64,000 bases of DNA from Escherichia coli (GTDB lineage Bacteria > Pseudomonadota > Gammaproteobacteria > Enterobacterales > Enterobacteriaceae): the NCBI RefSeq assembly GCF_003334315.1, contig NZ_QOWR01000015.1; one strand, written 5' to 3'. This document shows positions 9,001 to 30,000 of this stretch, one piece after another. The position numbers were made by a program. Every line of letters starts with the position of its first letter. The first letter of the stretch is position 1.

Positions 9001-12000
9001 TTTACGCAACGCCGCCCGCGAAGGAGATGCTAATCCGCTCACGGGCAAACGTATTTACAGCGCAGGGTTGCCGGAGTGTCTTGAAAAAGGCCGGAAAATC
9101 TTTGAATGGGAAAAACGCCGTGCAGAATGCCAGAACCAGCAAGGCAATTTGCGCCGCGGCGTTGGCGTCGCCTGTTTTAGCTACACCTCTAACACCTGGC
9201 CTGTCGGCGTAGAAATAGCAGGCGCGCGCCTTCTGATGAATCAGGATGGAAACATCAACGTGCAAAGCGGCGCGACGGAAATCGGTCAGGGTGCCGACAC
9301 CGTCTTCTCGCAAATGGTGGCAGAAACCGTGGGGGTTCCGGTCAGCGACGTTCGCGTTATTTCAACTCAAGATACCGACGTTACGCCGTTCGATCCCGGC
9401 GCATTTGCCTCACGCCAGAGCTATGTTGCCGCGCCTGCGCTGCGCAGTGCGGCACTATTATTAAAAGAGAAAATCATCGCTCACGCCGCAGTCATGCTAC
9501 ATCAGTCAGCGATGAATCTGACCCTGATAAAAGGCCATATCGTGCTGGTTGAACGACCGGAAGAGCCGTTAATGTCGTTAAAAGATTTGGCGATGGACGC
9601 TTTCTACCACCCTGAACGCGGCGGGCAGCTCTCTGCTGAAAGCTCCATCAAAACCACCACTAACCCACCGGCGTTTGGCTGTACCTTTGTTGATCTGACG
9701 GTCGATATTGCGCTGTGCAAAGTCACCATCAACCGCATCCTCAACGTTCATGATTCAGGGCATATTCTTAATCCACTGCTGGCAGAAGGTCAGGTACACG
9801 GCGGAATGGGAATGGGCATTGGCTGGGCGCTATTTGAAGAGATGATCATCGATGCTAAAAGCGGCGTGGTCCGTAACCCCAATCTGCTGGATTACAAAAT
9901 GCCGACCATGCCGGATCTGCCACAACTGGAAAGCGCGTTCGTCGAAATCAATGAGCCGCAATCCGCATACGGACATAAGTCACTGGGTGAGCCACCAATA
10001 ATTCCTGTTGCCGCTGCTATTCGTAACGCGGTGAAGATGGCTACCGGTGTTGCAATCAATACACTGCCGCTGACGCCAAAACGGTTATATGAAGAGTTCC
10101 ATCTGGCAGGATTGATTTGAGGATAACATCATGTTTGATTTTGCTTCTTACCATCGCGCAGCAACCCTTGCCGATGCCATCAACCTGCTGGCTGACAACC
10201 CGCAGGCCAAACTGCTCGCCGGTGGCACTGACGTACTGATTCAGCTCCACCATCACAATGACCGTTATCGCCATATTGTTGATATTCATAATCTGGCGGA
10301 GCTGCGGGGAATTACGCTGGCGGAAGATGGCTCGCTACGTATCGGCTCTGCAACGACATTTACCCAGCTAATAGAAGATCCTATAACTCAACGTCATCTC
10401 CCGGCGTTATGTGCTGCGGCCACGTCCATTGCTGGACCGCAGATCCGTAACGTCGCTACCTACGGTGGAAATATTTGCAACGGTGCCACCAGCGCAGATT
10501 CTGCCACGCCAACGCTAATTTATTACGCGAAACTGGAGATCCACTCCCCGCGCGGTGTTCGTTTCGTCCCGATTAATGGCTTTCACACCGGGCCGGGCAA
10601 AGTGTCTCTTGAGCATGACGAAATCCTCGTCGCCTTTCATTTTCCGCCACAGCCGAAAGAACACGCGGGCAGCGCGCATTTTAAATATGCCATGCGCGAC
10701 GCAATGGATATTTCAACGATTGGCTGCGCCGCACATTGCCGACTGGATAACGGCAATTTCAGCGAATTACGCCTGGCATTTGGTGTTGCCGCGCCAACGC
10801 CGATTCGCTGCCAACATGCCGAACAGACTGCACAAAATGCGCCATTAAACCTGCAAACGCTGGAAGCTATCAGCGAATCTGTCCTGCAAGATGTCGCCCC
10901 GCGTTCTTCATGGCGGGCCAGTAAAGAGTTTCGTCTGCATCTCATCCAGACGATGACCAAAAAAGTGATTAGCGAAGCCGTCGCCGCGGCGGGGGGAAAA
11001 TTGCAATGAATCACAGCGAAACAATTACCATCGAATGCACCATTAACGGGATGCCTTTTCAGCTTCACGCCGCACCAGGCACGCCGCTCTCGGAATTACT
11101 CCGCGAACAAGGACTGCTAAGTGTCAAACAAGGGTGCTGCGTGGGTGAATGTGGTGCCTGTACGGTGTTGGTCGACGGCACAGCAATAGACAGTTGCTTA
11201 TACCTTGCCGCCTGGGCTGAAGGAAAAGAGATCCGCACGCTGGAAGGTGAAGCGAAAGGCGGAAAACTTTCTCATGTTCAGCAGGCTTATGCGAAATCCG
11301 GCGCAGTGCAGTGCGGGTTTTGTACGCCTGGCCTGATTATGGCTACCACGGCAATGCTGGCGAAACCACGCGAGAAGCCATTAACCATTACGGAAATTCG
11401 TCGCGGACTGGCGGGAAATCTTTGTCGCTGCACGGGGTATCAGATGATTGTAAATACAGTTCTGGATTGCGAGAAAACGAAGTAAAAGGATATCCGGCCT
11501 GAATTCAGGCCGGATTCACTGAGGTTATGTGTTTAACAACTCATATTTCTTAATCTTGCGATAGAGCGTAGCAATGCCGATGCCCAGTTCATCAGCAACT
11601 TGCTTCTTGCTGTTATGACGTGAAAGCGCCTCGCGGATCATTTGCTTTTCCATCTCCTCCAGCGCCGTGCCGCCCGCATCATCGAGTGACAGGTGCGCCT
11701 CACTGACCTCTGTTACATCACTTTGCTCCGTTGTGCCATTATTCAGCAGATTTGGCGGCAATAGCGTGCTGTCGATAACTTCACCTGAAGGAACCACGTT
11801 AACCAGATATTCCATCAAATTGCTTAACTCGCGCAGGTTTCCGGGCCAACGATGCTTACGCAATATTTCGACGACATCGGGAGCAATGCCAGGATAAACC
11901 GATCCCAGACGACGGGTATGCAGATGTAAAAAGTAATGCACCAATAGTTCAATATCTTCCTGACGTTCACGCAGCGGTGGCAGAGTTATCGGGATAACAT

Positions 12001-27000: not shown

Positions 27001-30000
27001 GATTTGTTCCCTGGAAGCGATTAAGAGCGGATGTACATCGGTTATCGATCACCATGCCTCTCCGGCGTATATCGGCGGGTCGCTCTCCACATTGCGCGAC
27101 GCATTTTTAAAAGTTGGCCTGCGCGCGATGACCTGTTTTGAAACTACTGACCGTAACAACGGCATCAAAGAGTTGCAGGAAGGTGTAGAAGAAAACATCC
27201 GTTTCGCCCGTTTGATTGATGAGGCGAAGAAAGCGACAAGCGAGCCGTATCTGGTGGAAGCACATATCGGTGCTCACGCGCCGTTTACCGTGCCGGATGC
27301 CGGTCTGGAGATGCTGCGTGAAGCCGTGAAAGCCACAGGCCGTGGTTTGCATATTCACGCTGCGGAAGACCTTTACGACGTTTCCTACAGTCACCACTGG
27401 TACGGCAAAGACCTGCTGGCACGACTGGCGCAATTCGATCTCATCGACAGCAAAACGCTGGTCGCTCATGGGCTGTACTTGTCGAAAGATGACATCACCC
27501 TACTCAATCAGCGCGATGCGTTCCTGGTGCATAACGCCCGTTCAAACATGAACAACCATGTCGGCTACAACCATCACCTTAGCGACATCCGCAATCTGGC
27601 GTTGGGAACGGACGGCATTGGTTCGGACATGTTTGAAGAGATGAAATTTGCCTTCTTTAAACATCGCGATGCGGGTGGTCCGCTGTGGCCTGACAGTTTT
27701 GCCAAAGCCCTGACTAACGGTAACGAACTGATGAGCCGCAACTTTGGCGCGAAATTTGGGCTTCTGGAAGCCGGTTACAAAGCTGATTTAACCATTTGCG
27801 ATTACAACTCGCCGACGCCGCTGCTGGCAGACAATATCGCCGGGCATATCGCTTTCGGTATGGGCTCAGGCAGCGTTCACAGCGTGATGGTCAATGGTGT
27901 GATGGTCTATGAAGACCGTCAGTTTAACTTCGATTGCGATTCCATTTATGCACAAGCCAGAAAAGCCGCTGCCAGTATGTGGCGTCGGATGGATGCGCTG
28001 GCATAAATGACAGATGCCCTCTTCCCGCAGGGAAGAGGGTTAAATAAGGAAAGAAGATGATTGAACAATTTTTCAGGCCCGACTCTGTCGAACAGGCGCT
28101 GGAACTGAAGCGCCGCTACCAGGATGAAGCCGTCTGGTTCGCCGGGGGCAGCAAACTCAATGCTACACCAACCCGTACCGATAAAAAGATTGCCATTTCC
28201 TTACAGGATCTGGAACTGGACTGGGTTGACTGGGATAACGGTGCACTGCGGATTGGCGCAATGTCTCGCTTGCAGCCACTGCGTGATGCGCGATTTATTC
28301 CTGCAGCGCTGCGTGAAGCCCTCGGTTTTGTTTACTCACGCCATGTTCGTAATCAGTCGACCATTGGTGGTGAAATCGCCGCCCGCCAGGAAGAGTCGGT
28401 GCTGCTTCCCGTCCTGTTGGCACTGGATGCTGAACTGGTTTTTGGCAACGGCGAAACGCTGTCAATCGAGGACTACCTGGCCTGCCCATGCGATCGCCTG
28501 CTAACCGAAATTATCATTAAAGATCCGTATCGCACCTGTGCGACCCGCAAAATTAGCCGTTCTCAGGCAGGTTTAACCGTCGTGACGGCAGCCGTTGCAA
28601 TGACAGACCACGACGGTATGCGAATTGCGCTGGATGGCGTCGCCAGTAAAGCACTGCGTCTGCATGATGTCGAAAAACAAAATCTGGAAGGCAATGCACT
28701 TGAACAGGCTGTCGCCAACGCCATTTTCCCGCAGGAAGATTTGCGGGGCAGCGTGGCCTATAAACGCTATATCACGGGAGTTCTGGTAGCCGACCTGTAT
28801 GCCGACTGCCAACAGGCTGGGGAGGAAGCCGTATGATCATCCACTTTACTTTAAATGGCGCGCCTCAGGAGCTAACCGTTAATCCAGGCGAAAACGTGCA
28901 AAAGCTGTTGTTTAACATGGGAATGCACTCTGTACGCAACAGTGATGATGGTTTCGGGTTTGCCGGTTCTGACGCAATAATCTTTAACGGTAATATCGTT
29001 AACGCGTCCTTGCTTATTGCCGCACAGTTAGAGAAGGCAGATATTCGTACCGCAGAATCTCTGGGCAAATGGAACGAGTTAAGTCTGGTTCAACAGGCAA
29101 TGGTTGATGTTGGCGTGGTGCAGTCTGGTTATAACGATCCAGCTGCAGCTCTGATTATCACCGATCTTCTCGATCGCATCGCCGCACCTACCCGCGAAGA
29201 GATCGACGACGCGCTTTCTGGTTTGTTCAGCCGCGATGCTGGCTGGCAGCAATACTATCAGGTCATTGAACTGGCGGTTGCACGTAAAAATAATCCGCAG
29301 GCCACCATTGATATCGCTCCGACTTTCCGTGACGACCTAGAAGTCATTGGTAAGCATTATCCTAAAACTGATGCCGCGAAAATGGTGCAGGCGAAACCCT
29401 GCTATGTTGAAGACCGCGTAACGGCTGACGCCTGCGTCATTAAAATGTTACGTAGCCTACACGCTCACGCACTGATTACTCATCTGGATGTCAGCAAAGC
29501 TGAAGCCTTACCGGGCGTCGTTCACGTTATTACTCACCTGAATTGCCCGGATATCTACTATACCCCGGGTGGTCAGAGCGCACCGGAACCGTCACCGCTT
29601 GACCGCCGTATGTTCGGCAAGAAAATGCGTCACGTCGGCGATCGTGTTGCTGCGGTCGTCGCAGAAAGTGAAGAAATTGCGCTCGAAGCACTGAAGCTCA
29701 TCGACGTTGAATATGAAGTGCTTAAGCCGGTAATGTCGATCGACGAAGCAATGGCGGAAGATGCGCCTGTCGTGCACGATGAACCGGTGGTGTATGTTGC
29801 TGGTGCGCCAGATACTCTGGAAGACGATAACAGCCATGCAGCCCAGCGCGGCGAGCATATGATCATCAACTTCCCGATCGGTTCTCGCCCTCGCAAAAAT
29901 ATCGCCGCCAGTATTCATGGTCATATTGGCGATATGGACAAAGGCTTTGCCGATGCCGATGTGATCATTGAGCGAACCTATAACTCAACGCAAGCGCAGC

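Follow-up and report, generated by a model that had tools for sequence, protein, structure and literature searches.

The window of Escherichia coli DNA analyzed here, a stretch of 64,000 nucleotides (nt) from contig NZ_QOWR01000015.1 of RefSeq assembly GCF_003334315.1, contains the xdhABC, ygeV, ygeWXY-hyuA-yqeA, and ygfK-ssnA-ygfM-xdhD region, and this work concerns three gene junctions in it, namely, xdhB/xdhC, ygfM/xdhD, and ygfK/ssnA, at which the stop codon of one gene overlaps or nearly touches the start codon of the next. The gene layout was taken from the RefSeq annotation of the near-identical strain EH09-18-41 (approximately 3 mismatches per 20 kb), and the open reading frame (ORF) coordinates and this annotation agree with the junction positions. 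On the plus strand, xdhA-xdhB-xdhC is followed by ygeV (a sigma-54 activator) on the minus strand, by ygeW-ygeX(dpaL)-ygeY-hyuA-yqeA(arcC) on the plus strand, and by yqeB-yqeC on the minus strand; then come mocA, ygfK-ssnA-ygfM-xdhD on the plus strand, and xanQ-guaD-ghxQ. Several E. coli chromosomes carry the 20-kb stretch around the junctions with 100% identity, and all of the 5,426 complete genomes contain some match to it. The genes of the two relevant clusters, in which FAD stands for flavin adenine dinucleotide, Mo for molybdenum, and Fe-S for iron-sulfur, are as follows.

7823..10120, plus strand: xdhA, Mo-binding subunit (ORF and RefSeq annotation)
10131..11009, plus strand: xdhB, FAD-binding subunit (NF007427, 530.7 bits, cutoff 287)
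11006..11485, plus strand: xdhC, 2Fe-2S subunit (NF007387, 341.9 bits, cutoff 212)
23577..26675, plus strand: ygfK, flavin/Fe-S reductase that dearomatizes yanthine (TIGR03315, 1774.6 bits; function from PMC12507026)
26678..28006, plus strand: ssnA, amidohydrolase that opens the reduced ring (NCBIfam and annotation; function from PMC12507026)
28057..28836, plus strand: ygfM, FAD-binding subunit (TIGR03312, 489.7 bits, cutoff 241.5)
28833..31703, plus strand: xdhD, fused 2Fe-2S and Mo-binding subunit, a reductase of urate to yanthine (TIGR03313, 2118.3 bits, cutoff 1101.9; function from PMC12507026)

Protein identities were assigned with NCBIfam models and their curated cutoffs, and the six proteins at the junctions (XdhB, XdhC, YgfK, SsnA, YgfM, and XdhD) all scored above them. 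The separate FAD, 2Fe-2S, and Mo-binding modules of a molybdenum hydroxylase of the xanthine dehydrogenase family were thus recognized by curated models, and residues 3 to 145 of XdhD also match the 2Fe-2S model of XdhC (63.5 bits). Tagged XdhD was reported to copurify with a protein of approximately 30 kDa taken to be YgfM, in a preparation that reduces urate to yanthine, and the reduction of yanthine by YgfK was seen only when coupled to hydrolysis by SsnA, for which the authors blame unfavorable thermodynamics (PMC12507026). The three junctions and the Shine-Dalgarno (SD) motifs of their downstream genes are located as follows.

11006-11009, plus strand: ATGA overlap of xdhB and xdhC (spacing -4), with the xdhC ATG at 11006-11008 and the xdhB TGA at 11007-11009, in the context gcaATGAatc
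10991-10997, plus strand: SD-like G-rich run GGGGGGA of xdhC, within xdhB
28833-28836, plus strand: ATGA overlap of ygfM and xdhD (spacing -4), with the xdhD ATG at 28833-28835 and the ygfM TGA at 28834-28836, in the context cgtATGAtca
28821-28825, plus strand: SD motif GGAGG of xdhD, within ygfM, 7 nt before the ATG
26673-26680, plus strand: ygfK/ssnA junction (spacing +2), with TAA at 26673-26675, the spacer tc, and the ATG at 26678 (gtgTAAtcATGttg)
26666-26672, plus strand: SD motif GGAGGTG of ssnA, made by the last codons of ygfK

An earlier note on this DNA had claimed the two ATGA overlaps, and both were read directly at these positions. It had also placed the ssnA start 3 bp past ygfK; the spacer measures 2 nt, which makes the A of the start codon the third nucleotide beyond the stop codon, so that this wording is acceptable. 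At all three junctions the SD motif stands 7 to 9 nt ahead of the ATG. Each of them combines a same-strand overlap or a spacer of a few nucleotides with a downstream SD motif in the 3' end of the upstream gene, as is characteristic of coupled pairs; the SD motif mattered in four of the five E. coli pairs that have been studied by experiment (PMC6728339). The preceding xdhA-xdhB junction has a 10-nt spacer (+10) with GAGGA 7 nt ahead of the xdhB ATG. Comparison supports the start codons: in 80 species for SsnA and 44 for XdhD, the N termini line up from residue 1 at these ATGs, and xdhC has no alternative in-frame start ahead of a conserved CTING motif. The longest ssnA frame opens at a GTG at 26612, a position 64 nt inside ygfK, and would add the stretch 26612-26677; this start was rejected because conservation across the 80 species begins only at the ATG at 26678. 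Within E. coli the arrangement holds generally, with 60-mers spanning the junctions present in 5,177 to 5,281 of the 5,426 complete genomes, and the divergent alleles that were sampled retain the spacings of -4, -4, and +2.

The comparison across species was based on one genome scan with SsnA, which yielded 80 loci from approximately 27 genera, mostly Gammaproteobacteria, with SsnA identities of 68 to 97%; neighboring genes were placed by tblastn and then extended to stop and start codons. In the 44 loci in which ygfM and xdhD are adjacent, their spacing was found to lie between -4 and +4 without exception, down to a YgfM identity of approximately 50% (-4 in 23 species, -1 in 11, +2 in 5, +3 in 4, and +4 in 1), and all 44 species have an xdhD SD motif matching at least 4 of the 6 positions of AGGAGG. 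Other junctions of the same loci served as an internal control and vary widely, from 27 to 96 nt for ssnA-ygfM, from 42 to 363 nt for ygeY-hyuA, and from -14 to 339 nt for hyuA-yqeA. Because of this contrast, the tightness of the subunit junction between ygfM and xdhD appears to be maintained rather than accidental. For xdhB/xdhC, the check extended to two loci, both from Serratia, that included the pair inside the 10-kb flanks; both keep the ATGA, although XdhC is 6 amino acids shorter there, with a remodeled N terminus.

The gene ygfK is the immediate upstream neighbor of ssnA in all 80 loci, and the spacing lies between -4 and +3 in 59 of them. A spacing of +2 was found in 36 loci, five of which also have an alternative ATGA start, and one of +3 in 5 loci. 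A true ATGA is the sole available start in the 18 loci with a spacing of -4, which belong to Klebsiella, Raoultella, Enterobacter, and relatives (L016, L020, L022, L023, L025-L029, L032-L034, L038, L040-L042, L063, and L064; mostly at about position 9995); where the E. coli ssnA start would align, these species have ATC or a different codon that is not a start, and the sole ATG lies 6 nt upstream. These are also the very species that have no ygfM downstream of ssnA. The remaining loci show spacings of +13 to +15 (12 loci; Vibrio, Photobacterium, and Rhodoferax, with a separate SD motif), of +24 to +30 (7 loci; Aeromonas), and of +74 and +268 (one locus each). The best ssnA match to AGGAGG covers at least 5 of 6 positions in 62 of the 80 species.

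The elements that delimit the transcripts, together with a hairpin between ssnA and ygfM, are listed below; dG is the folding free energy, and z is the score relative to shuffled sequences.

7751..7767, plus strand: sigma-54 promoter element upstream of xdhA, CTGGCGTAAATCTTGCC, identical to chromatin immunoprecipitation sequencing (ChIP-seq) site OS29 (PMC4591121)
11492..11515, no strand assigned: terminator-like palindromic hairpin in the gap where xdhC and ygeV converge (dG -21.0 kcal/mol, z -4.8), marking the end of the xdhABC operon
13673-13688: sigma-54 motif upstream of ygeW, a reported ChIP-seq site (PMC4591121)
23488..23504, plus strand: sigma-54 promoter element ahead of ygfK, GTGGTGCGATTGTTGCT, which matches ChIP-seq site OS31 exactly (PMC4591121)
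28016..28040, plus strand: perfect GC-rich hairpin (11-bp stem, 3-nt loop; dG -20.2 kcal/mol, z -4.5) within the 50-nt spacer between ssnA and ygfM
28046..28050, plus strand: SD motif AAGGA of ygfM, unpaired, downstream of the hairpin
31713..31728, no strand assigned: terminator-like hairpin GGCCGCTTCGGCGGCC after xdhD, from the terminator scan, marking the operon end ahead of the 164-nt gap to xanQ

The ChIP-seq study places sigma-54 sites upstream of xdhA, ygeW, and ygfK and makes no mention of ssnA, ygfM, xdhD, xdhB, or xdhC (PMC4591121). All these genes fall within a single iModulon, that of YgeV, and Supplementary Table S3 of PMC10666635 lists xdhABC as polycistronic. Given that spacings of -4 and +2 leave no room for a promoter, that the polycistron is listed in that table, and that the sigma-54 sites lie upstream of xdhA and ygfK, we infer one transcript for each pair, and co-transcription of ygfK-ssnA-ygfM-xdhD is the simplest view. 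Scans for internal sigma-70-like promoters gave matches at shuffle expectation (8 versus 9.7, 15 versus 12.0, and 11 versus 11.7), matches to the sigma-54 pattern were at chance level (45 versus 42.2 expected), and no promoter-like match was found on the plus strand between 24730 and 29266. There was therefore no sign of independent promoters inside the operon, the result that the earlier note had named as speaking against it. The string TGGCAC-N5-xxGCA at 27417, inside ssnA, was considered as a sigma-54 site and discarded, since ssnA goes unmentioned in the ChIP-seq paper (PMC4591121). A search for early ssnA/rpoS literature that could map a promoter gave nothing containing ssnA. An Rfam search over the whole window returned only tRNA, naRNA4, and 6S RNA, with nothing at gathering score within 7000-32000.

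The boundary between ssnA and ygfM differs in character from the three tight junctions. None of 200 shuffled sequences was as stable as the hairpin at 28016-28040, which has the GC-rich stem-loop of an intrinsic terminator but lacks the U-run after the stem; the tail reads UUAAAUAAGG, and this hairpin is absent from the output of the terminator scan. In 22 of 39 species the ssnA-ygfM spacer has a significant fold (z < -2), the median z from per-sequence shuffles is -2.6, and hairpins recur across genera with unrelated sequences. In the four Escherichia and Citrobacter hairpins that could be aligned, both partners of a base pair have changed in a compensatory manner at three places, and one pair is broken. 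Between genera the hairpins are too dissimilar for sequence alignment; when 15 spacers were aligned with MAFFT and folded with RNAalifold, the outcome was an uninformative 5 pairs at -1.67 kcal/mol. In 39 species ygfM was not placed right behind ssnA, and in at least 15 of these a terminator made of a hairpin and a T-run directly follows ssnA. Furthermore, ygfM-xdhD lies 4 to 7 kb from ssnA in Photobacterium, xdhD lies upstream in two Vibrio species in which no ygfM homologue was detected, and many Klebsiella and Enterobacter relatives carry xdhD on the opposite strand. Because of the hairpin-bearing spacer, the recurrence of such hairpins, the terminators after ssnA in relatives, and the placement of xdhD elsewhere, ygfK-ssnA and ygfM-xdhD are regarded as two separable modules that are joined at a punctuated boundary. 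The statement in the earlier note that ssnA lies firmly inside the ygfK-xdhD operon thus holds on one side, where ssnA is tied to ygfK in 80 of 80 species, and needs to be softened on its 3' side, where a 50-nt spacer with an 11-bp hairpin is found that is replaced by a true terminator in many relatives.

Taken together, these data are best explained by SD-assisted termination-reinitiation at the three junctions, within two sigma-54 operons and two modules, and this explanation is probably correct. Each of the two operons would be run from one sigma-54 promoter. A ribosome ending xdhB or ygfM would release its peptide 1 nt beyond the next AUG, and one ending ygfK would do so 3 nt before the ssnA AUG, with the SD motif that the final codons of the upstream gene encode keeping the ribosome in place for a restart on the downstream gene. 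The two ATGA junctions would in this way tie the synthesis of the FAD subunit to that of the 2Fe-2S docking module, namely, XdhB to XdhC and YgfM to the N-terminal Fe-S domain of XdhD, and the +2 junction would tie two consecutive enzymes, the YgfK reductase and the ring-opening hydrolase SsnA, whose reactions are thermodynamically coupled. The E. coli modules would be linked by the hairpin-bearing 50-nt spacer, and ygfM would initiate from its own free SD motif.

The sequences themselves give the layout of the junctions, the SD motifs, the extent to which both are conserved in other species, and the identities of the proteins. From these we infer that reinitiation occurs, that it sets the ratios of the subunits, and that ygfK, ssnA, ygfM, and xdhD lie on a single transcript. 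Coupling of xdhB to xdhC and of ygfM to xdhD is favored because these genes encode hydroxylase subunits, because XdhD copurifies with its presumed partner, because the spacing is tight in 44 of 44 loci, and because coupling is frequent among tested pairs: of five native overlapping E. coli pairs, four were found to be coupled, mostly in an SD-dependent manner, whereas bioBF initiated de novo (PMC6728339). Pairs spaced at -8 to +10 are enriched 4.5-fold for complex subunits, and reinitiation drops steeply with distance, with losses of 5%, 20%, and 70% at +2 for the three pairs examined and of 80 to 100% at +38 (PMC10666635). The proposal of the earlier note that the subunits are stoichiometrically coexpressed is supported in part: xdhB and xdhC, and likewise ygfM and xdhD, are probably coupled, and a 1:1 ratio may follow from this.

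Several points weigh against coupling by reinitiation. The genes at the three junctions are silent in standard laboratory conditions, and a search for published expression, ribosome-profiling, or polar-mutation results on these junctions found none. Reinitiation alone yields an output of at most 1:1, so that an exact stoichiometry is not guaranteed. The ygfK-ssnA spacing loosens to +13 to +30, with an SD motif of its own for ssnA, in Vibrio, Photobacterium, Rhodoferax, and Aeromonas, so that tight spacing is not essential for that pair. The -4 overlap of pepP and ubiH, genes without a related function, indicates that an overlap by itself is no sign of a complex. Moreover, the three downstream genes carry well-placed SD motifs in regions of no unusual local structure (z = 0.46, 1.29, and -0.17), and de novo initiation could for this reason supply much or all of the downstream translation, as it does for bioBF.

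The last of these points leads to a rather unlikely, though by no means negligible, alternative, according to which the overlaps are a neutral outcome of genome compaction and of the drift of start and stop codons, with ribosomes loading independently at each strong SD motif. The position of these motifs 7 to 9 nt before each ATG, the ordinary structure of the local RNA, and the experimentally uncoupled overlap of bioBF (PMC6728339) agree with it, as does the fact that -4 is the commonest E. coli spacing and occurs here also between the unrelated pepP and ubiH; the exact spacing also drifts among species (-4, -1, +2, +3, and +4). Pure drift fits poorly, however, with a ygfM-xdhD spacing that never exceeds +4 in 44 species while nonsubunit junctions nearby span hundreds of nucleotides, with the Serratia xdhB/xdhC ATGA that survives the remodeled XdhC N terminus, and with the coupling of four of the five overlapping E. 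coli pairs tested (PMC6728339). The notion that the downstream ribosome-binding site is shut in an mRNA hairpin and opened only by the ribosome translating the upstream gene is very improbable. The minimum-energy fold of ygfK/ssnA does pair GGAGGUG with a downstream CUACACC; yet the 100-nt junction windows fold no better than shuffled sequences (the z values given above), and the minimum-energy structures have a low ensemble frequency of 0.03 to 0.16. An occluded SD motif or AUG was therefore rejected as the basis of coupling, the junction folds being unremarkable.

It is likewise unlikely that ygfM-xdhD is largely a unit of its own, in which case the hairpin after ssnA would end or process most ygfK-ssnA transcripts, ssnA would be operon-terminal, and ygfM-xdhD would be reached by read-through or from an unrecognized internal promoter. 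Such an arrangement would accord with the strength of the hairpin at 28016-28040 and the presence of hairpins at the same position across genera, with the hairpin and T-run terminators right after ssnA in at least 15 relatives without ygfM downstream, and with the free SD motif of ygfM. The distant (Photobacterium), upstream (xdhD of two Vibrio species), or opposite-strand (xdhD of many Klebsiella and Enterobacter relatives) location of these genes points in the same direction. The E. coli hairpin, however, lacks a U-run and was not called terminator-like, the plus strand from 24730 to 29266 holds no promoter-like match and the match counts are at chance, ssnA, ygfM, and xdhD are unmentioned in the sigma-54 ChIP-seq paper (PMC4591121), and the four genes belong to one iModulon.

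As to how ordinary such spacings are, -4 was found in 3 of the 37 same-strand neighbor pairs of the window and a spacing of -8 to +6 in 8 of 37. In E. coli, -4 is the modal spacing, and 707 of 2,987 unidirectional pairs (24%) lie within -8 to +6 (Huber et al. 2023, PMC10666635). Tight junctions are hence no more frequent in the window than chance gives and match the genome-wide figure of 24%. The third -4 pair of the window is pepP/ubiH (61030-61033, minus strand), an ATGA overlap between unrelated enzymes. In addition, ygfT and ygfS (36525-36531, minus strand), genes of formate-dependent urate utilization in the same regulon, overlap by TGATG (-1) and are probably a further coupled pair, missing from the earlier note. 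Supplementary Table S2 of PMC10666635 lists the spacings xdhA-xdhB +10, xdhB-xdhC -4, ygfK-ssnA +2, ssnA-ygfM +50, ygfM-xdhD -4, and xdhD-xanQ +164. Since -4 is the commonest spacing, since the counts in the window match those of the genome, and since the distances stand in Table S2, the observation of the junctions is correct but ordinary: overlapping or almost touching genes are the most usual layout where bacterial genes are translated together, the phenomenon is known, and these instances have already been catalogued.

The finding itself therefore carries little weight, stop-start overlaps of subunit genes being textbook knowledge and these distances being published. In hindsight, the spacing rule pointed the right way for ygfM and xdhD, as the table of PMC10666635 had scored this pair as "not a complex," which is contradicted by the copurification of 2025 indicating that there is one (PMC12507026). 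The ygfK-ssnA junction is the only tight junction here that joins no known subunits, and the same rule makes YgfK and SsnA a candidate physical pair, which is a cheap prediction for the newly described reductive urate pathway. This pathway is being engineered into probiotics for gout. For such refactoring, ygfK-ssnA and ygfM-xdhD would be treated as separable units that are tight inside and punctuated by hairpins at their boundaries. As a speculation to which we give only a modest chance, YgfK and SsnA may be physically associated and channel the unstable reduced yanthine, and, separately, the hairpins at the ssnA-ygfM and ygeY-hyuA boundaries may be functional punctuation, acting as decay barriers or leaky terminators that set the module ratios.

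Further hairpins and repeats were noted in the region. The spacers of approximately 55 nt between ygeW and ygeX, ygeX and ygeY, and ygeY and hyuA each hold a stable GC-rich hairpin (14976-14997, 16239-16261, and 17510-17529, respectively), and the hyuA-yqeA spacer is usually free of hairpins. The hairpin between ygeY and hyuA reads CCCTCCGG-TTCG-CCGGAGGG followed by TTTTTGG, is listed by the terminator scan, and has the appearance of an intrinsic terminator within the operon; at this junction 43 of 44 species have a stem run of 7 bp or more, whose sequence diverges among them and which is followed by no conserved U-run. In L003, L007, L043, and L044, the ygeY-hyuA spacer has grown to 135 to 363 nt by insertions rich in long palindromes (CCCTCTCCC...GGGAGAGGG), which resemble small repeat elements that came to lie between the two cistrons. 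The gap between the convergent genes yqeA and yqeB has two copies of a 26-nt palindromic hairpin, GGCCGGGTGGGTAATACCATCCGGCC (19917-19942 and 20097-20122), and these copies flank an inverted pair of elements resembling repetitive extragenic palindromic (REP) sequences, so that it looks as if a bacterial interspersed mosaic element was inserted into a bidirectional terminator and duplicated the terminator hairpin. Finally, the first 1.65 kb or so of the window (1-1650) differs from EH09-18-41, which has an IS1 element and a truncated regulator gene there, adjoining what is left of a type III secretion gene cluster; the difference seems to be an insertion polymorphism.

Intercistronic stem-loops are known to set differential expression in operons, as in the case of the malEFG REP hairpin and in that of Rhodobacter puf, and leaky intrinsic terminators occur inside operons. 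The hairpins at ssnA-ygfM, ygeW-ygeX, ygeX-ygeY, and ygeY-hyuA resemble such elements in that each is a stable GC-rich stem between two cistrons that is then followed by a free SD motif. Unlike that of malEFG, they contain no REP sequence and have no Rfam match, and the one between ssnA and ygfM has no U-run.

The three junctions resemble pairs that are coupled by termination-reinitiation in that the genes overlap or nearly touch on the same strand and the SD motif lies inside the upstream gene, and two of the three join subunits of one enzyme, a class that is enriched among pairs so closely spaced (PMC10666635). The exception is ygfK/ssnA, which encode consecutive enzymes rather than known subunits. 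Clear parallels also exist to molybdenum hydroxylase operons such as those of xanthine dehydrogenase, CoxMSL, and CutABC, in which genes for FAD, 2Fe-2S, and Mo modules are adjacent; across 1,695 genomes, the median spacings of the subunit COG pairs CutS to CutB, CutB to CoxL, and CoxL to CutS are -4 or -3.4. The gene order differs between the two hydroxylases of the window, being Mo-FAD-FeS in xdhABC and FAD followed by the fused FeS and Mo modules in ygfM-xdhD, and XdhD of C. difficile is reported to have no YgfM partner at all (PMC12507026). Both ATGA overlaps (11006-11009 and 28833-28836) nevertheless fall at the same boundary, that from the FAD subunit to the 2Fe-2S module, and the overlap at this boundary may be older than the duplication that gave rise to the two paralogous enzymes.

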